DNA from: a virus
Lineage: Duplodnaviria; Caudoviricetes
Direction: 5' to 3' (one strand)
Length of the DNA stretch: 64,000 nucleotides
Virus record (IMG/VR): IMGVR_UViG_3300042013_000103
Positions 3,256-47,583 of this stretch are shown piece after piece. Every line of letters starts with the position of its first letter. Within the stretch, counting starts at the first letter, position 1. A program made the translations under genes and the position numbers. Below the pieces are notes generated by a model. That model ran no database searches, was not told the DNA's origin, and saw only the letters and a list, made by a program, of their open reading frames with translations.

Positions 3256-3670
3256 ATTGTTCCCACTTGTCCGCGGTGTAAACCACGATAAAAATTGCCT
3301 TGTTTCGTTTGAACTGCACGGGGAACACGGCGTTGACTCCTTTGGGTAAGGCTTTCCACAACACCAAGGCCGTGTCAATAAAGAGCTTCTCATAGCGAGC
3401 AGCCCGTTTCCCTTTGCGCCTTTCAAAACCGTCGGGCATCCGCAACCAGTTCCCGGGAATCACAAACTCCCAGTCGTAGGTCATGTCTTCCCGTTCCACG
3501 GTAGCAATCCCGCGCATCACCCAGTCGATGATGTCGTTAAACACCCCGCACGGTCCCACACCGACGTAGGCATGGCCGGTGATGATCTTGGAATGCAGTT
3601 TCTCCAGTTCTTCGTAGTGGGGGAAGTAGGTGGGGATGTCCAGCGTGTACACCAACTCTTTACGTTCCAT
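3155..3670 (-). CDS. hypothetical protein (probable start MERKEL at 3670)
   Basis: ORF track, GAGGT RBS. Confidence 0.65.
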   Translation of the reverse strand: MERKELVYTLDIPTYFPHYEELEKLHSKIITGHAYVGVGPCGVFNDIIDWVMRGIATVEREDMTYDWEFVIPGNWLRMPDGFERRKGKRAARYEKLFIDTALVLWKALPKGVNAVFPVQFKRNKAIFIVVYTADKWEQYEIVNRLRAEAFYTRDQRTGALAGRALRATSPE

Positions 3671-3720
3671 TAGATACACCTCTTGACAGCATATCGCCCC
3701 AGCCGAAGCCGGGGCGAAAG

Positions 3721-3984
3721 TTACGTGTTGACCACGGGGAGCGTTAACCCGCTGAGCGAGTTGCGGCAAGAATGGTGCATTTGTTCTTGCAGCAGGGCTT
3801 GCTTGGCTTTGGTCACCAACACGTATTGTTCAGTGGTTCCGCGGTGGCTGTAGGCATTGACCACGTAACCTTTTGTTTCCAGGGCCGACAGGGCGATGGC
3901 TTTGAGTGGGTCATTGACGGTGAACTCAACCACGTGGAACCCTGTCCCCTGATATATCTTAATACCTTGACGAAAATCAATCAT
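3721..3984 (-). CDS. hypothetical protein (start MIDFRQ, ATGA-coupled)
   Basis: Start overlaps stop of upstream gene. Confidence 0.65.
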   Translation of the reverse strand: MIDFRQGIKIYQGTGFHVVEFTVNDPLKAIALSALETKGYVVNAYSHRGTTEQYVLVTKAKQALLQEQMHHSCRNSLSGLTLPVVNT

Positions 3985-4904
3985 TGACGGTTCTCCATAA
4001 TCCAACGCTCCGCGATGTCCACTTCACCCGGCAACAACCGATCACCGCGCTCGTAGGACTCCACCAGTTCCAGGATTTCGCGCTCACTGGCACTGCGGTT
4101 CACTTCCCGGATGGTCAGCAAGCCATTGATCAAGTCGGCTTCGTAACTTTTGTTCCGTTTGATGTACGTCGAGAAGTACGTCAACCCGAACGCGTGCAGT
4201 ACCTTGGAAACGACGTTAGACTTGAAGGTGTCGTAATGGAAGATCCCCATTCTCGCCAACAGTTTGCTGTCCACCATAGGAGTGTGCTTGCTGAAGCGCA
4301 GCTGAGGATACAGTTCCACGAACACTTCCGCCACCAGTGCGGTAATAAACCCGGCGGTGAATTCCATGCCGTAGTGGGTTTCGAACTTCTCATGGATGTA
4401 CTCGATCGGGTTGGAACAATTCAACGAGATGTACGGACGTTCGTTCTCGTCCACGTACTCGTTCGCTTGCTCCCACTCGGACACGCGGTAGTCCTTGCCT
4501 TCCGCCATGGCCAAGATCCCCGCCATGGAAATGATCTTCCACTCGGTCCAGGTCTTTTCTTCGATGTGCCGGTAGATCTGCCCTGACAGTTCATGCACGA
4601 TGCCGTCAATCGACGGTTCACGGTCCACAATCTCGGCGATGTCGATTTGGTGCGGTTGGACTTGTTCCTGTTCGCAGTTAAACAGGATCGCGGCTTTGGC
4701 CAAGGTCCAGTCATACCCGTTGGTGGGGATCAACGATCGGGCCGCCAATAACTCTTCGGCCAACACTTTTACGTACCGCATCCCCATGGCTTTCGTTGGG
4801 AACGCAAAGGATGCATTTGGGTTGTTTTCTTTTAGGAAGATAAAGTAATCCAGCGCCACGGACACGTGTTGGCGCGCTTCCAGTACAATAAACCGCTTAT
4901 GCAT
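3981..4904 (-). CDS. conserved jumbo-phage hypothetical protein
   Basis: 307-aa ORF with strong codon bias. Confidence 0.75.
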   Translation of the reverse strand: MHKRFIVLEARQHVSVALDYFIFLKENNPNASFAFPTKAMGMRYVKVLAEELLAARSLIPTNGYDWTLAKAAILFNCEQEQVQPHQIDIAEIVDREPSIDGIVHELSGQIYRHIEEKTWTEWKIISMAGILAMAEGKDYRVSEWEQANEYVDENERPYISLNCSNPIEYIHEKFETHYGMEFTAGFITALVAEVFVELYPQLRFSKHTPMVDSKLLARMGIFHYDTFKSNVVSKVLHAFGLTYFSTYIKRNKSYEADLINGLLTIREVNRSASEREILELVESYERGDRLLPGEVDIAERWIMENRQ

Positions 4905-6363: not shown

Positions 6364-6597
6364 TTATTGCACAGTGGCCAGCACACTGCTGACGATTTGT
6401 AAAGATCCATCATGGTGCAAGTGCACTCCACGGGGGCGGGGGTGAATCGTCGCGATTTGATTGTTCGCGAGGATGTCCCAAATGATCACGCAATGTTTCT
6501 TGACGATGATCTGGTGGTCAAAGGCCGAGTACAAACGTTTGGCTCGGGTCATTAAACGCTTAGCGTTGCTCACGATGTCAGTTTCATAGGTTTCCAT
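6364..6597 (-). CDS. small hypothetical protein (~80-aa paralogue family)
   Basis: ORF with an AGGAG RBS; shares pattern with neighbours. Confidence 0.7.
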   Translation of the reverse strand: METYETDIVSNAKRLMTRAKRLYSAFDHQIIVKKHCVIIWDILANNQIATIHPRPRGVHLHHDGSLQIVSSVLATVQ

Positions 6598-40665: not shown

Positions 40666-41352
40666 TTAAACGTAGAACCAGTCTTTCCACTGCGGCGAGT
40701 TTGATTTTAATCGAAGACGAGTTGTGTCGGCCCTAGTGTTATTCTGCCTAGCCGCTTCACGTGAGCTTGCATAGACGATTCCATTTATTGAAACCTTCTT
40801 ACTGCGCGCACGATTTCTAGCCCGACACATCTCCGCAATGGATTCAGGTTGCGGCTTTCCTTTCTTTTGGGTGGATAGTATCTGTTTGGTTAGATCTGAA
40901 GTAATTCTTCCAGTTAGGGCTGCACTTATTTTCTTCCTTACCTCTTCACTAACGACCGCCCCCTTCATGCGTTCCGACAGGCGTTGTCTATGAGCAGCAT
41001 CATACACCCTACCTTTATTAGAAATCCTAGCATCCATCGCGAGGTTTAACAATAACCCTGTTGGAGCATAATGGTTGATAAGGGCTTGTTCTACGTCATA
41101 GGCATCTTCGCGAGTCTTGGTTACATAGAACACTTTATTAAAATTAGGGTTTTCATTGTAAGCAGCCTGGAATTGATGATTAATGTGATAGTTACCCTTT
41201 AGTAACGTTAGATGGTTGGCAGCACGTAAACCGATCCGTGTGGAACTACCCACGTAGACTTTCCGGGTCTTCTCTTGGTAGAGACAATACACTCCGGTAG
41301 TCCATGATGTGTTAGTAATGTGGTCTGGATGAGGAATTAAAGTATTTAACAT
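40666..41352 (-). CDS. free-standing GIY-YIG homing endonuclease with NUMOD3 repeats (start MLNTLI)
   Basis: GVYCLY...KVYVGSS...R..NH; NUMOD3-like repeats (RQRLSERMKG, RKKISAALTG); C-terminal INGIVYASSREAAR HTH; AAGGAG RBS. Confidence 0.9.
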   Translation of the reverse strand: MLNTLIPHPDHITNTSWTTGVYCLYQEKTRKVYVGSSTRIGLRAANHLTLLKGNYHINHQFQAAYNENPNFNKVFYVTKTREDAYDVEQALINHYAPTGLLLNLAMDARISNKGRVYDAAHRQRLSERMKGAVVSEEVRKKISAALTGRITSDLTKQILSTQKKGKPQPESIAEMCRARNRARSKKVSINGIVYASSREAARQNNTRADTTRLRLKSNSPQWKDWFYV

Positions 41353-41401
41353 AAATACTCCTTTAAGTAAAGATGATCTCCGTTGAACTACGTTCACCGA
41401 A

Positions 41402-41411
41402 ATAATATAGT
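41402..41411 (-). promoter_or_regulatory. early-promoter-like ACTATATTAT upstream of the endonuclease
   Basis: One mismatch to the window's ACTATATTAC motif. Confidence 0.55.
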
Positions 41412-41423
41412 CACATAACGTGT

Positions 41424-41489
41424 TCGAATCCATTGTACCAAGTTAACCTGATGGACTCGCATGGCGAACAAGAAGTGTTCGAGATGTAA
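41424..41489 (+). pseudogene. stranded duplicate of the nrdB 3' end (SNPLYQVNLMDSHGEQEVFEM*)
   Basis: Aligns ungapped to nrdB SQTAYMVNLMDAAGEQEVFDM* (14/21 identical aa, same stop position); no start codon. Confidence 0.85.
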
Positions 41490-41572: not shown

Positions 41573-41605
41573 CATAGGGGTCCGCCTTCGGGCGGGCTCT
41601 TATGT
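41573..41605 (+). terminator. intrinsic terminator
   Basis: GGGTCCGCC-TTCG-GGCGGGCTC-TTATG. Confidence 0.7.
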
Positions 41606-41655
41606 CGTCAATTTTATGTAACGTCATTTAAACTTTCTGAAACTGAGTAGCCCTC

Positions 41656-43806
41656 ATGAATACTTCCGAACAACAAACACCCACGGATGGCGGGGATCAA
41701 CCACCATTGCACGAAGACAACTCACGTGAAGACCCTGCTAACCGTCCGGAACCCACGGAAGATGAAGGCTCGCGTCAACACCACGTCATTCCGACCGAAC
41801 CCTTGGCGGAACCGGATTACGACCTGTGCCCGGAAGGCAACACCCCTGGGGCCGGCAACATCTACGCCATGGAACGCTTCCTCGACCGTACTCAGTTTAA
41901 AGAACTGGTGGGCACCCCGAGCCTGGAAACGTTCCTGTTCGGTCCCCACGTGACCCCCGCTGAAACAGAAGCCGCCACGTTCACGTTCCAGGAGCACATT
42001 TACCGATCGTCGGACTTGCAGAAGTTGGTGGACTGCATTCCCGTTACGCAGTTCCCTTTGGAGAAGCTTCAGTGGATGGCGGGTTTGCCGTTTGATCAAG
42101 CCCTGGTGGATGCTGCTGACCTCAGCTTGCCGGTGGTCGTGACCGAACACGAGATGGGCAGTTGGACCGCCCCGGATGGGCTGCCGCGTGTTATTAAAGC
42201 CCTGCAGCAGAAAGCCGTCACCCTCCCCGCCAAAGTGGTCCCGCCTGGGTTTGAATTGAGCCTGCATCCAGTCAAGCCAGGCAACGAAGGGGTGTTCGAC
42301 TTCTTTAAGAAACTGTTCCAGCCTTCCCCCAAAGCCCACGACGCCAACGCGGTGAAGGTGCTGGAGAGCCAGTACAAGAACCTGACCTGGCTGAACCAAC
42401 AAAGCTTTGCGGAAGGGGAGATTGACTTGGGCAAAGCGGGCAAAGCACTGGCCATTAAAGGCAAGGTACCCGCGGACATTCAAACCGCCGTGACCTTGGC
42501 GCTGAAAGAGTTCGGGGACGCCAGTCGGGATTTGGTCAAAGCACTCAAGCCGATTTTGGGTGAGGTCGATGAACGGCTGGATGATGTGTACGACAGCAGT
42601 TCGGCTGAGTGGGAAATGGACCAAATAGCGGATCTGGTGGATGAAGCCAACACCCTGATTCGCAATGCCACGGCTGCCTTTACCTTGGGTGACGACAAGG
42701 TCACCTCGACCACCACCAAAGCGCTGGATGCCAAAGGCGTGCAACAGTTGGCGACGGGGTTGCTGAAGTTGATCGCTCTGTACGAGACCACCCGGCAACA
42801 GTTGGGGAACCTCGGCGTGGCGGAAGCCGAATGGCAAATGGCGGACATCCTGACCGAATACCCGGATCAGACGTTGGCGGAAAGTTCCTTTGCAGGCTTT
42901 CGTATCTTGGACGAACTCGAAGAAGTGATTCGGGTGTTGACCATCGCCATTGACAAATCGATCAAGGCCACCGGTGGCACTCCATCCACGGTGTCCAAAG
43001 AAGGCTTTGGGGATTTCATCAAAGGGCTATTCACCAAGAAACCGGTGGAAGTGGATTTCCGTAACCTCACGGAAGTGCGGCGCAAACTGAAAGAAACCCT
43101 GTTGTCGGATAAGTGGTTGGCCCAACAGGGTTTCATCACCGATGACGTGACCTTGGTGGTACCGGCTTTCTTGGTGACCGGCGACTACAGTTCCGTCGTG
43201 CGCATCATGGAGAACAGCGCCAAAGGGGCGATTGCCAAAAACAAGGCCGCCTTGCAGACGTGGTACGCGACGTGGGAACGCATTAACAAATACGCCACCA
43301 GCGGTGATATGAACAGTTGGACCGTTGCCGGCGTCCGCGACATGATCGACAGCGTGGACACCGACGCCGACATTGATTTCGTGGACATGCCGGATCTGAT
43401 GAAAGGTCCCCGTTCGGTGAAACTCCCTGCCCTTAATGCCGCTCAGGTTAAAGCGGTGGCTGAAGTGATCCTGGCGCTGAACGACTCCGACGTGGGGTTT
43501 TTCCGGAAGTCGGTGGAAGGCCAATGGCGCGACGATAACTTCTTGGGCAAAGGGGACATCAGCAAGTGGGATCAAAACAGTGCGTTCAGCAAAGAACGTT
43601 TGGCCACCATCAAAGACCCTGCGGTAAAGGCGGCGGTCGATGAATTGTTTGAAACCTGTGAACATGCGTGCAACAACGTGTTCAAAGGGTTCTTCAACGG
43701 CATGGACGTGTACTGGCACAACCATCATCACACCGCGACGCTGCTGGTGGCGTGGATTGAGAAGTCGCTGGGCAAGACCGTGTCGAAAGAAGTCTACGTG
43801 AAATAA
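41656..43806 (+). CDS. probable virion internal-head protein, protease-processed, with ParB-like N-terminal domain and two repeated domains
   Basis: GNE|GVFDFFKKLF and SKE|GFGDFIKGLF repeats match the S/A/G-x-E head-protease site; DLSLPVVV...DGLPRVIKA...LPAKV is ParB-like. Confidence 0.65.
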   Translation: MNTSEQQTPTDGGDQPPLHEDNSREDPANRPEPTEDEGSRQHHVIPTEPLAEPDYDLCPEGNTPGAGNIYAMERFLDRTQFKELVGTPSLETFLFGPHVTPAETEAATFTFQEHIYRSSDLQKLVDCIPVTQFPLEKLQWMAGLPFDQALVDAADLSLPVVVTEHEMGSWTAPDGLPRVIKALQQKAVTLPAKVVPPGFELSLHPVKPGNEGVFDFFKKLFQPSPKAHDANAVKVLESQYKNLTWLNQQSFAEGEIDLGKAGKALAIKGKVPADIQTAVTLALKEFGDASRDLVKALKPILGEVDERLDDVYDSSSAEWEMDQIADLVDEANTLIRNATAAFTLGDDKVTSTTTKALDAKGVQQLATGLLKLIALYETTRQQLGNLGVAEAEWQMADILTEYPDQTLAESSFAGFRILDELEEVIRVLTIAIDKSIKATGGTPSTVSKEGFGDFIKGLFTKKPVEVDFRNLTEVRRKLKETLLSDKWLAQQGFITDDVTLVVPAFLVTGDYSSVVRIMENSAKGAIAKNKAALQTWYATWERINKYATSGDMNSWTVAGVRDMIDSVDTDADIDFVDMPDLMKGPRSVKLPALNAAQVKAVAEVILALNDSDVGFFRKSVEGQWRDDNFLGKGDISKWDQNSAFSKERLATIKDPAVKAAVDELFETCEHACNNVFKGFFNGMDVYWHNHHHTATLLVAWIEKSLGKTVSKEVYVK

Positions 43807-43826
43807 TACTCAACTGTCCTGTTATA

Positions 43827-43948
43827 TAGGTGAAGATGTCGCTGAGCGCTCCCCATGCTGGGGAAGGTGCTAGTACCGGTCGTATGTGTATCGGTCAGTT
43901 GGGGAAACCCAACCACCCAGCGGCATCTTCATCCTACCTTTATGTTTT
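43827..43948 (+). ncRNA. putative structured RNA, copy 1 of a five-helix motif
   Basis: 18-bp terminal helix with one bulge and one G-U, inner P2-P5, GAAA tetraloop, U-rich tail; second copy at 44853. Confidence 0.7.
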
Positions 43949-43965
43949 ATTTCGGAGAATACGTC

Positions 43966-44148
43966 ATGACCACCACCATCACCATTGCAGCTCATTGCAC
44001 CCCCGACAAAGAAGTCTCGGTTCGCATCCTGGACCACACCAACGGCACCGTGGTGGAAACGTTTGCCATGCAAGACGGCGACACGACCAACCGTGTGGTG
44101 TTTGATGGCCGTGAACTCACCGTGTCCGAAGTGCTGAAAGCGAAGTAA
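43966..44148 (+). CDS. 60-aa beta-rich protein MTTTITIAAHCTPDKEVSVRI...
   Basis: GGAG RBS; track start at 43855 rejected because it lies inside the RNA motif. Confidence 0.75.
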   Translation: MTTTITIAAHCTPDKEVSVRILDHTNGTVVETFAMQDGDTTNRVVFDGRELTVSEVLKAK

Positions 44149-44151
44149 CCC

Positions 44152-44829
44152 ATGACCGTCGATATCAGCACATACCTCATCGCCACCCCGTTGCCCGTGT
44201 CGGACACCAACCCAGTGGCGCTGGAACTCATGGGGGCACAAGCGTTGATCGATTGCCCCACGGTGATTCAGCAACTGGAGGATGGGTCGGTGCAGTTGTC
44301 CGCCCCTACCTTGGGCGCGTCCAGCAAAAGCACGCACCGTACCCGCTGTGAATGGAAGGACGCTGCGTACTGGGCCTTGGACAGTGCCGCACACCACTGG
44401 AGCCGCCAAGAGCTGACCTTGCTTAAAGTCAACTCAGCGGAAAAAGTGGTGGTGGCCCAGATCCACGTGAAAGGCGCCACCACCCCACCCCTGAAAGTGT
44501 TCTGGGATAAAGGTAAGCTTCGCATCGGGTTCCGGGCCAGTTTTGTTGACCCGGCCATCGCCAGCTCGACGCTCCTGTACAACGTGCCTTTGAACACCCC
44601 CTTCAAAATCGCCATACACGCCACCCTGGGTGGTTCTGTGTCGGTGACGGTGTCGTGTGAGGGGAACAAGGTAACGAGTCCTGTGCTGCGTCTGGACGCG
44701 TCGTGGAAGGATCAGTTGTTCCAGTTCCACGGTGGTATCTACAATCAAGTGGATTACACCGAAGAAACCTCGGCAGAAGATGGGTCGGTGTGCGTGATCA
44801 GTTCGCTGGTCACCACGCACGGTGCATAA
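44152..44829 (+). CDS. polysaccharide lyase family 7 (alginate lyase-like)
   Basis: RTRCEWK (cf. RxELR), QIH, FQFHGGIYNQ (cf. YFKAGxYxQ); ~225-aa jelly-roll size. Confidence 0.8.
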   Translation: MTVDISTYLIATPLPVSDTNPVALELMGAQALIDCPTVIQQLEDGSVQLSAPTLGASSKSTHRTRCEWKDAAYWALDSAAHHWSRQELTLLKVNSAEKVVVAQIHVKGATTPPLKVFWDKGKLRIGFRASFVDPAIASSTLLYNVPLNTPFKIAIHATLGGSVSVTVSCEGNKVTSPVLRLDASWKDQLFQFHGGIYNQVDYTEETSAEDGSVCVISSLVTTHGA

Positions 44830-44852
44830 AACTACCCGGGTGTAAACTAGTA

Positions 44853-44971
44853 TAGGTGAAGATGTCGCCGAAAAGTCCCTGATGATGGGATGGTGCAAAG
44901 GTCGGGCAATACGTCTGGCTAATCGGGGAAACCCCAGCATCCTGCGACATCTTCACCCTAGCTTTATGTTT
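44853..44971 (+). ncRNA. putative structured RNA, copy 2 of a five-helix motif
   Basis: 16-bp terminal helix with a bulge at the same position as copy 1, P2-P5, GAAA loop, CTTTATGTTT tail. Confidence 0.7.
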
Positions 44972-44990
44972 CAAAGGACCGGTATGGTAT

Positions 44991-45079
44991 ACGGGTTCTT
45001 GCACCGAGCGTGAGATAGAGCCTCCCAAGCTCTGTCGCCGGGGCTGAGGATCGCGGTTAGCTCAGTTCAAAAAACCCGC
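44991..45079 (+). ncRNA. possible three-way-junction RNA
   Basis: CGGGTT/AACCCG closing stem; GATAGAGC/GCTCTGTC and GGGCTGAG/CTCAGTTC hairpins. Confidence 0.35.
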
Positions 45080-45098
45080 CCAAATTTCGAGGTTCAAT

Positions 45099-45257
45099 AT
45101 GATCCGACCATTCACGTTGAGTGATATAAAACCCTTACCTAACGCCAACGGCCGAGAGCACAGTTTAGACATGGTTCGTAGGTATCAGGAAGCGCAGGCT
45201 AAGCTGGAAGCGATCTGCAAAGAGAAAGGCATTCCTGTGCCGATCATGGTTTGTTGA
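45099..45257 (+). CDS. 52-aa protein MIRPFTLSDIKPLPNANGREHSLDMVRRYQEAQAKLEAICKEKGIPVPIMVC
   Basis: Hand-called; GAGGT RBS; 3 nt before next gene. Confidence 0.55.
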   Translation: MIRPFTLSDIKPLPNANGREHSLDMVRRYQEAQAKLEAICKEKGIPVPIMVC

Positions 45258-45260
45258 GCC

Positions 45261-45455
45261 ATGAGTCTCGCTGCCTTGATCCAACTCACTGAACGCTTAA
45301 AGAATCAAACCCCCGATGAAAGGGCTGCCCGACATAAGGCGGCCAATGAACGGTTGCGCCTATTCAACATCGAGTGCGAACAACGCATTCGAGACTCGAT
45401 CCCCACCCAAGCACAATTGAACAAAGTGTGTAACTGGGGTACTTTACACGGATAA
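45261..45455 (+). CDS. small hypothetical protein
   Basis: ORF track. Confidence 0.6.
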   Translation: MSLAALIQLTERLKNQTPDERAARHKAANERLRLFNIECEQRIRDSIPTQAQLNKVCNWGTLHG

Positions 45456-45460
45456 AACGA

Positions 45461-45590
45461 ATCTGCTGCAGCGGATAATGCAATGCATCCGGATTACGAT
45501 AGTGCCAGCGCCTCGTAAGCGTGAGAAGACCCTAGGCCTCAGGATGAGGGAAAAGACCCGTAGCCGGCGGAGAGCGTTACATTAACACCA
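45461..45590 (+). ncRNA. possible structured RNA (nested long hairpin with two apical hairpins)
   Basis: TAATGCAATGC/GCGTTACATTA and CCGGATTACG/CGTAGCCGG nested stems; followed by a terminator. Confidence 0.45.
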
Positions 45591-45594
45591 CCCA

Positions 45595-45618
45595 GGGAGA
45601 TCTTCGGATCTCCTTTAT
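45595..45618 (+). terminator. intrinsic terminator
   Basis: GGAGATC-TTCG-GATCTCC-TTTAT. Confidence 0.75.
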
Positions 45619-45637
45619 AACGCAACAGGACTTTACC

Positions 45638-45946
45638 ATGACCGCAGCCATCCATGAATTTCCCGTTTACAAAATCGTCCAGACCAACAACAGTTCACGC
45701 TGGCCTTGTTGGAACGTGTTGTGTTCCGCCTACGGTGACTCCGGTTACCTGTACAGCTACGCCGCGGTAGAAAAATGGGTGGCGGGGCACATTACCCAAT
45801 ACGTGAAGTTATCGGACCATCTGGCGGTCGTTCGGGAACTGGAACAAACGGAGAAGCAAGCGAAGGATCTCGGCTATGCTAACTTAGAGGATGCCTTGGC
45901 TGATTTAGCCGTACTCAAGGAACAACGTGACTACCCGGGAAACTAA
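45638..45946 (+). CDS. hypothetical protein
   Basis: 102-aa ORF with an AGGA RBS. Confidence 0.7.
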   Translation: MTAAIHEFPVYKIVQTNNSSRWPCWNVLCSAYGDSGYLYSYAAVEKWVAGHITQYVKLSDHLAVVRELEQTEKQAKDLGYANLEDALADLAVLKEQRDYPGN

Positions 45947-45958
45947 CGTTTAACTCAC

Positions 45959-45984
45959 GAGAGGTCTTCGGATCTCTCTTATGC
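45959..45984 (+). terminator. intrinsic terminator
   Basis: GAGAGGTC-TTCG-GATCTCTC-TTATG. Confidence 0.7.
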
Positions 45985-46004
45985 TGTCTTGTACTGATAA
46001 CCCT

Positions 46005-46012
46005 TATATTAC
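46005..46012 (+). promoter_or_regulatory. early promoter motif TATATTAC
   Basis: Exact phiKZ early consensus just after a terminator and before 46047. Confidence 0.6.
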
Positions 46013-46046
46013 GTGCACTTTAGCACATTACCTCGAGACACCCATA

Positions 46047-46574
46047 ATGGCTATCTTTACACAAACCCGTGTTGATTACATGGGGATCATTGAAGCCCTG
46101 TTACAAGGCACCAATGAAAGTTATGAACGTAACAAAGAAGTGATGAACTGGGGCGACCACGCCGTTACTTTGCGCGATTGTCGCACGGTAGGATTCCTCA
46201 CCGGCCGTCAAACGGGCAAGGGAGAGTTCATCGCCGACTTCTACCGGAAGTACCCGAATGATACTTCGGTGTTGGTACGGGACGCCAAGCTCCAAAGTGT
46301 GGCAAGGGCGAACATCTTAAAAGGCGCTGATGGTCCCACGCCTCACGTCAGCGGTCCCGTGGCCGTGGCCACTGTGATTAAATCGCACATGGCCGATGTA
46401 ACGGCGGTTCCGGAAAGCGTATCTGACGACCCGTTGAACCGCCGTTACATCATCGTGGACGACGCCACGTTCTTCTTTGACATGTTGCATTCCATGGGCA
46501 TAAAGCGGAACAACTTCTTCCGGGCCATCGCCAGCCGGCGCGGCACCGACGTTAACATCATTTTAATAGGGTAA
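46047..46574 (+). CDS. small P-loop NTPase-like protein (start MAIFTQ)
   Basis: GRQTGKG Walker A and YIIVDD Walker B. Confidence 0.65.
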   Translation: MAIFTQTRVDYMGIIEALLQGTNESYERNKEVMNWGDHAVTLRDCRTVGFLTGRQTGKGEFIADFYRKYPNDTSVLVRDAKLQSVARANILKGADGPTPHVSGPVAVATVIKSHMADVTAVPESVSDDPLNRRYIIVDDATFFFDMLHSMGIKRNNFFRAIASRRGTDVNIILIG

Positions 46575-46579
46575 TCAAT

Positions 46580-47218
46580 ATGTTCAATCTGTTTCTAATG
46601 GGCCTTAAAGCGTGGGTGTTGTCTTACGTGAACGTCGCCCGGATCACCAGCTGGTTCGTCAGAGCAGACCTGTGGTGGAAAGGTTACCGTGTGGCCCAGT
46701 TGGAGGAGAACGTGGCTGTAATCGATCCACAGGAGCCCACCGAGGCAGAATGCAACTACTTGCAACTCCTCCGGCGCACGTTGGATACCCAATGCCTCCT
46801 CCCCCTGTTTGGTAATGACATTGACCCAACACAGCTGGGGAAGATCAAAGAGGAACTCTACGAATTCTTCCGTGAACGGTACCTCCAACAGAAGGCCCAA
46901 GAAGCAACTCCGGGGCCACGTGAATACACTTTCGAAGACGTGTTCATCCATGCTCGAAACGACTTGGTAATGGTCCTGTGGTTAGACCTGTGTTCGGCTG
47001 ACCGCATTCCCCTGTGGTACGCGATGACTGGCTTGACGTGTGTGAAGCCGAATCTCTTCGTTCAGGTCCATCGGGGTGGTAACCAGATCGTCAGTGAACA
47101 CGCGAACCAGCTGGAACTGTTCAACGCCGGTATCCAGGCCTTGTTGGCCCAAGAGAACCCCGACGTGAAAGAGTGGGTGGAACAAGTGGCAGCAGCGGAT
47201 GGTCGCAAAGTCGCTTAA
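46580..47218 (+). CDS. hypothetical protein
   Basis: 212-aa ORF. Confidence 0.7.
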   Translation: MFNLFLMGLKAWVLSYVNVARITSWFVRADLWWKGYRVAQLEENVAVIDPQEPTEAECNYLQLLRRTLDTQCLLPLFGNDIDPTQLGKIKEELYEFFRERYLQQKAQEATPGPREYTFEDVFIHARNDLVMVLWLDLCSADRIPLWYAMTGLTCVKPNLFVQVHRGGNQIVSEHANQLELFNAGIQALLAQENPDVKEWVEQVAAADGRKVA

Positions 47219-47228
47219 CGGCCAAGAC

Positions 47229-47275
47229 AAAAAAATAAGGCATAGAGCGTTCCCCTAGGGGAACGCTCATTATGT
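47229..47275. terminator. bidirectional terminator at the strand convergence
   Basis: GAGCGTTCCC-CTAG-GGGAACGCTC with an A-tract. Confidence 0.8.
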
Positions 47276-47277
47276 CG

Positions 47278-47583
47278 TTATGCCCGGCGGAACCGACGAG
47301 GGGACAGCGGGAGACTGGGTTCTCGTTGCTTGCGTAAACGCTTGGTGGTGTAGTCATGGATCCAACAGGCCAGCACAATGCCCAACGCACTGCCACAGCC
47401 CGCCGAGAGGATGATCCACTTGCCGCCAGCCACCGCAATCTGCGCGGACGCCACTTCCACCCCGCCGATGGCGAAACCAATTACCGCCATGGCCAAGTAG
47501 TAACCGGCGTTAATGTTCTTCTGTTGTAACGACTTGAGGAACACCACACTGAAAGTAATGCAAAAGCTTAACGCGAAGATCAT
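47278..47583 (-). CDS. small multi-pass membrane protein
   Basis: FLKSLQQKNI...GGVEV...GCGSALG; three hydrophobic helices. Confidence 0.7.
   Translation of the reverse strand: MIFALSFCITFSVVFLKSLQQKNINAGYYLAMAVIGFAIGGVEVASAQIAVAGGKWIILSAGCGSALGIVLACWIHDYTTKRLRKQREPSLPLSPRRFRRA

Follow-up and report, generated by a model that had tools for sequence, protein, structure and literature searches.

The stretch of viral DNA analysed here (the window, 64,000 nucleotides in length) encodes a tail sheath protein, a terminase and a ribonucleotide reductase, and fragments of chimallin and of a multisubunit RNA polymerase are found just upstream of it in the same genome. The window belongs to a phiKZ-like, nucleus-forming jumbo phage, the host of which is probably a Pseudomonas. 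The phage is present in rhizosphere metagenomes from different studies, and a 95–99% variant occurs in a wastewater library; searches for close relatives with the 716-aa protein and the tail sheath returned none. Two diverged copies of a structured element of about 125 nt lie 1026 bp apart on the coding strand, between plus-strand genes, and bracket a cassette of two genes (Table 1). Copy 1 begins 20 nt after the TAA stop codon of a 716-aa gene (43804–43806), and copy 2 begins 23 nt after that of a PL7-like gene (44827–44829). The locus of the elements is homologous to the tRNA island of Psa21-like relatives, in which tRNAs stand directly on either side of the PL7 homologue and several of the small ORFs near it recur. 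ARAGORN detects no tRNA gene in the 64-kb window. The island holds a second structured element (45461–45618), 89% conserved in a relative, and a GIY-YIG homing endonuclease gene is located 2.4 kb upstream.

Table 1. Features of the locus that carries the two elements
Feature	Position	Strand	Remarks
Canonical terminator (example)	41585..41612	+	8-bp GC hairpin, UUCG loop, tail CTTATGTCGT, ATAG 5′ of the stem
716-aa gene	41656..43806	+	Upstream of copy 1; weak PHROG matches to virion structural proteins
Element copy 1	43825..43951	+	Full covariance-model match, 144 bits
Copy 1, P1 5′ arm	43827..43844	+	Pairs with 43918–43936; 18 bp, bulged U at 43932
Copy 1, P2 hairpin	43850..43864	+	UCCCCA/UGGGGA; resembles the C-run/G-run hairpin of canonical terminators
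Copy 1, P3	43866–43869 with 43914–43917	+	Thermodynamically unfavoured; encloses P4 and P5 (region 43866..43917)
Copy 1, P4	43875–43880 with 43890–43895	+	
Copy 1, P5	43898–43913	+	GAAA loop
Copy 1, P1 3′ arm	43918..43936	+	From arm search, fold and pair probabilities
Copy 1, tail	43938..43947	+	CTTTATGTTT; fits the phiKZ-type terminator tail YTTATKYY
Bracketed two-gene cassette	43966..44829	+	Between the copies
60-aa ORF	43966–44148	+	Cassette gene
225-aa PL7/alginate-lyase-2-like gene	44152–44829	+	Cassette gene
Element copy 2	44851..44975	+	Covariance-model match, 139.8 bits
Copy 2, P1 5′ arm	44853..44868	+	Pairs with 44944–44960; 16 bp, one bulged C
Copy 2, interior	44875..44941	+	Probabilities 0.84–1.0 across the interior helices
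Copy 2, P2	44875–44879 with 44887–44891	+	
Copy 2, P3	44892–44896 with 44937–44941	+	Well supported in this copy
Copy 2, P4	44900–44907 with 44913–44920	+	
Copy 2, P5	44925–44928 with 44932–44935	+	
Copy 2, P1 3′ arm	44944..44960	+	From arm search, fold and pair probabilities
Copy 2, tail	44962..44971	+	CTTTATGTTT, identical to that of copy 1

The shared sequence of the two copies is concentrated at their ends. As the original prediction had it, an 18-mer occurs without a mismatch at 43825–43842 and 44851–44868, and it proves to be unique to these two sites in the 64-kb window even when as many as three mismatches are tolerated (0.03 matches expected). The predicted 28-nt stretch comprising the 3′ arm and tail was likewise recovered, at 43920–43947 and 44944–44971, with three differences between the copies (none expected by chance). 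The arms constitute terminal inverted repeats 14 bp long in each case, with 100% complementarity in one and 93% in the other and 73–75 nt between them. The 18-nt 5′ arm and the GAAA-capped P5 are invariant between the copies. A direct duplication of the kind left at a target site was looked for in the flanks of the arms, and none was seen in either copy.

Both copies fold far more stably than expected of their composition. The plus strand of copy 1 reaches −58.6 kcal/mol (z −5.72) and that of copy 2 −50.9 kcal/mol (z −5.02), and none of 200 shuffles equalled either value. The long closing helix P1 has a pair probability of about 1.0 in both copies taken overall; the P1 of copy 1 (0.76–1.0 along its length) contributes −28.6 kcal/mol as a helix alone and that of copy 2, in which the outer 4 bp are weak, −26.7 kcal/mol. 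Pair probabilities bear out the description of P1 as a helix of 18 bp in one copy and 16 bp in the other, with a bulged pyrimidine at the same place and a U–G pair exchanged for U–A. The further claim that both copies adopt one five-helix topology stands for P1, P2, P4 and P5, whose pairs have probabilities of roughly 0.85–1.0 in both, but not for P3, which in copy 1 (GGUG/CACC) has a probability near 0; there P2 is extended instead by pairing of AGCGC with GUGCU, and the common five-helix fold lies 5.6 kcal/mol above the minimum of that copy. In the nascent RNA the 5′ arm of P1 is only weakly engaged (mean unpaired probability 0.42–0.45), and a second complement for either P1 arm was sought in the window and not found. 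On the minus strand the fold is weaker by 5.0 kcal/mol in copy 1 and 7.3 kcal/mol in copy 2, and P4 is lost, in agreement with G–U pairs that are workable on the plus strand only. This difference upholds the preference, expressed in the original prediction, for an RNA over a DNA cruciform.

The differences between the copies are distributed unevenly with respect to this structure. None of the 32 consensus base pairs is broken; one has undergone a double change (A–U to G–C, in P4) and six have changed on one side by way of G–U. Compensatory change had been claimed more broadly, and what remains of that claim is the single true double change in P4: the others are of the one-sided wobble type, and 265 of 500 shuffles match the covariation, a control that is powerless with two sequences only. 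Paired columns differ in 8 of 64 cases and unpaired columns in 28 of 41 (Fisher p 8e-9), and with P1 left out the figures are 6 of 34 against 26 of 39 (p 4e-5), a comparison that is partly circular since these two sequences also served to derive the structure. The pattern is like that of a structured RNA under selection, and the folds and the column test support the view of a plus-strand RNA element under structural constraint. Variation among strains adds little here, as a contig of strain X2 that spans both elements shows no differences within them at an overall divergence (0.35–1.3%) too low to inform. A protein-coding reading was rejected: a common frame extends over the 3′ part only, owing to the shared nucleotides, single-base gaps put the interiors out of register, and a stop closes the other frame in copy 2.

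Comparison with described RNA families and with other genomes returned no relative of the elements. At gathering thresholds Rfam gives no match over the 64 kb, and at E ≤ 10 the matches over the elements are at chance level: MIR9672 with 20.3 bits (E 0.8, gathering threshold 74) and Burkholderiales-2 with 18 bits (E 5.1, gathering threshold 67.9). With the empty ARAGORN result, this agrees with the earlier failure to match the elements to any riboswitch or ribozyme consensus. A tRNA relic was also considered and rejected, since the elements neither score as tRNA-like nor resemble the tRNAs beside PL7 in the relatives. A covariance model, R1, built from both copies finds just these two in the window, the next best score being 21.7 bits on the palindromic reverse strand, and nothing in four Psa21-like genomes or in a further stretch of about 60 kb from the genome of this phage, obtained by contig walking in Logan (roughly 52 kb on the upstream side of the window and 8 kb on the downstream side). 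The search of the own genome thus covered about 124 of 308.6 kb, window included, and there a third copy is absent by the covariance model, by a fuzzy search for the arms and by an architecture scan alike. Exact and gapped arm patterns picked out 3 and 30 stretches in viral contigs, 75 in metagenome contigs and none in genome contigs, in collections scanned without the window's own contig; all those inspected lacked a complementary arm or lay in apparent coding sequence. No matches came from a BLAST comparison of the elements with 50,697 phage records. The phage, viral, metagenome and genome collections searched have yielded no homologue, and the small-RNA "family" of the original prediction comes down to two local copies across all collections searched. 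As a local pair of strongly structured plus-strand elements, the two copies are real.

A context for the elements that was absent from the first reading of them is supplied by the transcription terminators of the phage. In phiKZ, ONT-cappable-seq has tied transcript 3′ ends to a hairpin of consensus CCYCCCC-loop-GGGRRGG followed by a TTAT region of consensus BYTTATKYYGT (Putzeys et al., 2024; PMC10914365). Twelve canonical terminators of this type occur in the window, with a GC stem of 7–10 bp, mostly a UUCG loop, and a tail of YTTATG then CC or TC; ATA(G) stands directly 5′ of the stem in 7 of the 12, and one of them sits just upstream of the 716-aa gene. The elements carry the same flanks. 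In both copies P1 is immediately preceded by TATAG, CTTTATG begins 1 nt beyond its last pair, and a gene on the same strand lies just before the element. The conserved tail and the TATAG of the elements are thus the ordinary terminator flanks of this phage, which places the elements at transcript 3′ ends. The stem is another matter: P1 has 16–18 bp of mixed composition in place of a short GC-rich hairpin, only the internal P2 resembles a canonical hairpin, and the canonical hairpins have stabilities of −11 to −18.5 kcal/mol as against −28.6 and −26.7 for P1. In copy 2 the U-richness of the tail drops after 10 nt. An architecture scan for a long-range helix within 9 nt of a YTTATK tail recovered the two elements and a few chance pairs only.

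We propose that the elements are elaborated intrinsic terminators or 3′-end caps, in which the short hairpin is replaced by a helix of 16–18 bp that closes a branched domain, and rate this reading at about even chances. The two would be paralogous RNA 3′-end modules. As the phage RNA polymerase runs out of the 716-aa gene (at copy 1, where the transcript of that gene would end) or the PL7-like gene (at copy 2), the interior would be transcribed first and fold into three to four hairpins within a branched domain of about 75 nt. Emergence of the 3′ arm would then allow P1 to zip directly ahead of the U-rich tail CUUUAUGUUU and the transcript to be released; P1 should be able to close at this point because the nascent 5′ arm is weakly engaged. 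The upstream mRNA would retain a very stable, fully paired 3′ cap, and the long stem would make for strong termination that is difficult to override. There is precedent for such an effect, in that elongated stems make stronger terminators in the related phage 201phi2-1 (PMC11512511), and a 15-bp stem, where 7–9 bp are usual, renders a terminator of pLS20 resistant to processive antitermination (PMC10325885). The plus-strand-specific architecture is expected of an RNA signal and also favours the terminator reading.

The tail of copy 1 holds a TATG (43941–43944), 22 nt ahead of the ATG of the 60-aa gene. TATG is the core of the phiKZ late promoter, with the G as start site (PMC4666361), and within the tail it might double as a point from which late transcription of the next gene begins. 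Efficient termination at copy 1 would oblige the cassette to have a start of its own, for which this TATG is the sole candidate. Upstream of either element no phiKZ late-type promoter signal (TATG) was found, which speaks for the terminator reading. It should be borne in mind that phiKZ rules may not carry over to this distant relative. The sole RNA-labelled run, X4, yields thin, patchy contigs of low depth across 19 kb, which cannot resolve transcript ends. A branched insert of 75 nt between the stem arms is atypical of intrinsic terminators, and simple termination needs neither conserved P2, P4, P5 and GAAA loop nor an invariant 18-nt arm. Our confidence goes no higher because conservation of the interior helices and of the exact 18-nt arm is unexplained by the model; with stems kept while loops differ, the conserved interior says, on this comparison, that it has some function beyond the terminator model's reach.

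It is this surplus of interior constraint over what termination needs, together with the invariance of the 18-nt arm and GAAA-capped P5, that lends weight to a possible, though less probable, reading of the elements as stable small RNAs of about 115–120 nt with paired 5′ and 3′ ends, acting in trans or bound to protein. Such an RNA could be initiated independently, from the G of TATAG, and be ended by P1 and the tail, or it could be cut from a polycistronic transcript. The locus, matching the tRNA island of the Psa21-like relatives and sharing it with another structured element that is conserved in one of them, is in keeping with this; both phiKZ and 201phi2-1 are documented to make terminated RNAs shorter than 250 nt (PMC10914365, PMC11512511), and the tRNA region of T4 encodes two small RNAs of unknown role, RNAC and RNAD (PMC3014915). 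Some 22–23 nt upstream of P1 both copies show a weak likeness to the phiKZ middle-promoter motif AAanTTACc, but it overlaps the stop codons and is, by our estimate, statistically unconvincing. No recognised promoter is present: TATAG differs from the late TATG core, and neither the ACTATATTAC motif (8 sites) nor the AAnnTTACY-like sites found in the window convincingly precede the elements. The stop codon is only 20–23 nt from P1. Nor is there an enriched short species in the RNA-labelled run, whose thin, even coverage is uninformative in this respect, or a homologue in the other phages searched. More tentatively still, the elements might represent an undescribed class of stable jumbo-phage RNA of about 115 nt, resident in a former tRNA island and marked by a closed end helix of 16–18 bp, an invariant arm sequence and a GAAA-capped hairpin. 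A factor of phage or host, engaged for instance in processing or stabilizing RNA or in exporting it from the phage nucleus, would be bound by the conserved branched domain; termination would then merely end the RNA.

Selection at the level of DNA seems unlikely to account for the elements, although their arrangement invites it. As direct repeats with exactly one cassette of two genes between them, they could be intergenic modules that delimit or shuffle accessory genes by homologous recombination, in the manner of the PeSL modules of T4-type phages (PMC2839356, PMC4122927), or a small inverted-repeat mobile element. The PL7 gene has another, tRNA-flanked context in the relatives, the homing endonuclease gene lies nearby, and strain X2 differs at 12 positions in 285 nt (43500–43784) as against 11 in 3148 nt (43816–46963); this step in divergence at 43784–43816, with a minor contig that branches at 43796, points to mosaicism, with the junction at the 5′ border of copy 1. 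A bracketed cassette with such a step beside it is what joining by recombination at PeSL-like modules would be expected to leave, but the elements number two only and no promoter could be identified for them. Of the hallmarks of a MITE, the elements have the terminal inverted repeats and lack both dispersed copies and target-site duplications, with no third copy in the ~124 kb or elsewhere. Moreover, the G–U pairs and the plus-strand advantage of 5–7 kcal/mol point to selection on RNA, and neutral DNA repeats would not retain their stems amid diverging loops. A role as cassette border can coexist with termination, probably as a by-product and not as the selected function, since the substitution pattern and strand asymmetry point to RNA. 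RNase III processing sites lie between genes of phage T7, and an intergenic P1 of 16–18 bp with a single bulge and an invariant arm sequence could be a site of this type, cleavage separating the cistrons and leaving a protective hairpin; we consider this improbable, as the terminator tail right after P1 already accounts for the 3′ end and P1 falls short of two full turns unless stacked on P2 or P3. Least credible of all is a ligand- or protein-responsive cis-regulatory switch for the downstream gene, which the original prediction had offered as one of its options. What would suit it is the combination of several conserved stems around a junction, a GNRA loop and a position shortly before a ribosome-binding site and an ATG. 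A switch, however, would have to open a hyperstable P1 (−27 to −29 kcal/mol, probability about 1.0) with no alternative partner for either arm in the window; Rfam holds no matching aptamer, and the junction and loop residues, the usual sites of ligand pockets, are the least conserved (as the unpaired columns show). Given the shared flanks, a terminator or 3′-end cap is most likely, in preference to a new riboswitch.

By their flanks the elements are best called, on present sequence evidence, part of the phage's own terminator system. If they are terminators, the phiKZ-type signal of flank, stem and YTTATG tail can accommodate a branched insert closed by a long helix, which would inform our understanding of termination by the unusual RNA polymerases of jumbo phages and could yield terminator or insulator parts of very high strength for use in Pseudomonas. 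An extra role, as 3′-end cap, protein-binding site or small RNA, is hinted at by the conserved interior. In addition, the elements mark the borders of a swapped PL7-like lyase cassette in a region that is tRNA-bearing in related phages, and so provide an example of gene exchange framed by regulatory modules in giant phages.

Integron attC sites, which lie at cassette boundaries, are like the elements in being imperfect inverted repeats; both have an extrahelical base in a set position and a centre that varies and can be branched. The elements have no RYYYAAC/GTTRRRY core sites, however; the annotated parts of the genome contain no integrase, and the evidence for the elements favours a plus-strand RNA. 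By locus they can be likened to RNAC and RNAD of T4, which come from the tRNA region of that phage (PMC3014915): in either case a pair of small structured RNAs belongs to a phage tRNA island or to a locus homologous to one. The present window, however, is without tRNA genes, and the elements are only candidates for separate RNAs. PeSLs resemble them as repeated intergenic regulatory modules that flank small accessory cassettes in a plastic region; they are, however, numerous dispersed copies of an early promoter with a simple stem-loop (PMC2839356, PMC4122927), whereas the elements are two in number, have a much larger fold and lack any promoter that could be found. In TerR of pLS20 and the A/B-motif terminators of 201phi2-1, as in the elements, a stem of about twice the usual length precedes a U-rich tract (PMC10325885, PMC11512511), but those are simple short-loop hairpins, whereas the apex of the elements is a conserved branched domain, and no antitermination system is known for the present phage. 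The intrinsic terminator of phiKZ has a stem of about 7 bp made of C and G runs and a tetraloop, where the elements have 16–18 bp of mixed composition enclosing about 75 nt in three to four hairpins; what the two have in common is the YTTATKYY tail after the stem, the ATAG-type 5′ flank and the same-strand site shortly after a stop codon (PMC10914365).

At copy 1, the upstream one of the two diverged structured elements, the window was compared with X2, a sequencing run that contains a related strain of the same phage. The 3' end of the 716-aa gene shows 12 differences over 285 nt, but the sequence starting at 43816 shows just 11 over 3148 nt, and a minor X2 contig departs from the window sequence at 43796. 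A mosaic junction between strains lies at 43784-43816. Downstream, the small ORF is publicly annotated as 68 aa, beginning at an ATG (43942-43944) that lies inside the terminator tail of copy 1; a start at ATG 43966, which has GGAG as its ribosome-binding site and gives 60 aa, seems the likelier one.

The window contains 12 canonical phiKZ-type terminators, each a GC hairpin of 7-10 bp, in most cases with a UUCG loop, followed by a YTTATG tail (see table). Many carry CATA/ATAG on their 5' side, and because of this flank these look alike when read from either strand. A second recurrent motif, the promoter-like ACTATATTAC, occurs eight times in the window against one occurrence expected. At two sites it forms part of a longer repeat, continuing ...CAAC(G/A)GGGATAAACC, one of which leads directly into an ATG, and the motif probably represents the early promoter class of this phage.

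Features of the window and their coordinates
Feature	Position	Strand	Remark
Canonical terminators	6345, 6667, 7268, 10033, 15499, 22982, 31653, 33957, 34493, 40635, 41599, 60574
ACTATATTAC sites	5308, 7221, 15454, 22940, 41402, 53675, 57848 (minus strand)
GIY-YIG (I-TevI-like) homing endonuclease gene	40666-41433	minus	2.4 kb upstream of copy 1
Second structured intergenic element	45461-45618		nested long outer helix; own canonical terminator on the 3' side
Perfect 16-bp inverted repeat, 25-nt loop	46395-46451		within 197-aa ORF 45981-46574

Among the neighbouring features, the homing endonuclease gene adjoins ribonucleotide reductase genes, and the inverted repeat carries an X2 substitution in its 3' arm, at 46445. 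The second structured element folds no better than its shuffles (z -0.1) and is without a match in Rfam. It shares 89% identity over 135 nt with positions 3644-3778 of the Psa21-like viral contig L005, with no change in the core and differences on both strands of the outer stem.

This L005 counterpart is located between tRNA-Trp and the PL7 homologue. When window 43800-47300 was compared with four Psa21-like relatives (L004, L005, L006 and L008), the PL7 homologue was found within a tRNA cluster, alongside HNH endonuclease genes, in all four, the order in L008 being tRNA-Met, PL7, tRNA-Trp; the homologous part of the window (43800-47300) holds no tRNA genes. Directly 3' of its tRNA cluster, L008 has a long, strongly structured hairpin (6420-6500; z -4.6), unrelated in sequence to either copy of the element. 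In the window, a 40-nt stretch 3' of copy 2 (45040-45078) contains a tRNA D-arm-like string and may thus be left over from the tRNA island; the stretch is 87.5% identical to positions 4501-4540 of phage Psa21 (L004), which lie just 5' of tRNA-Trp.
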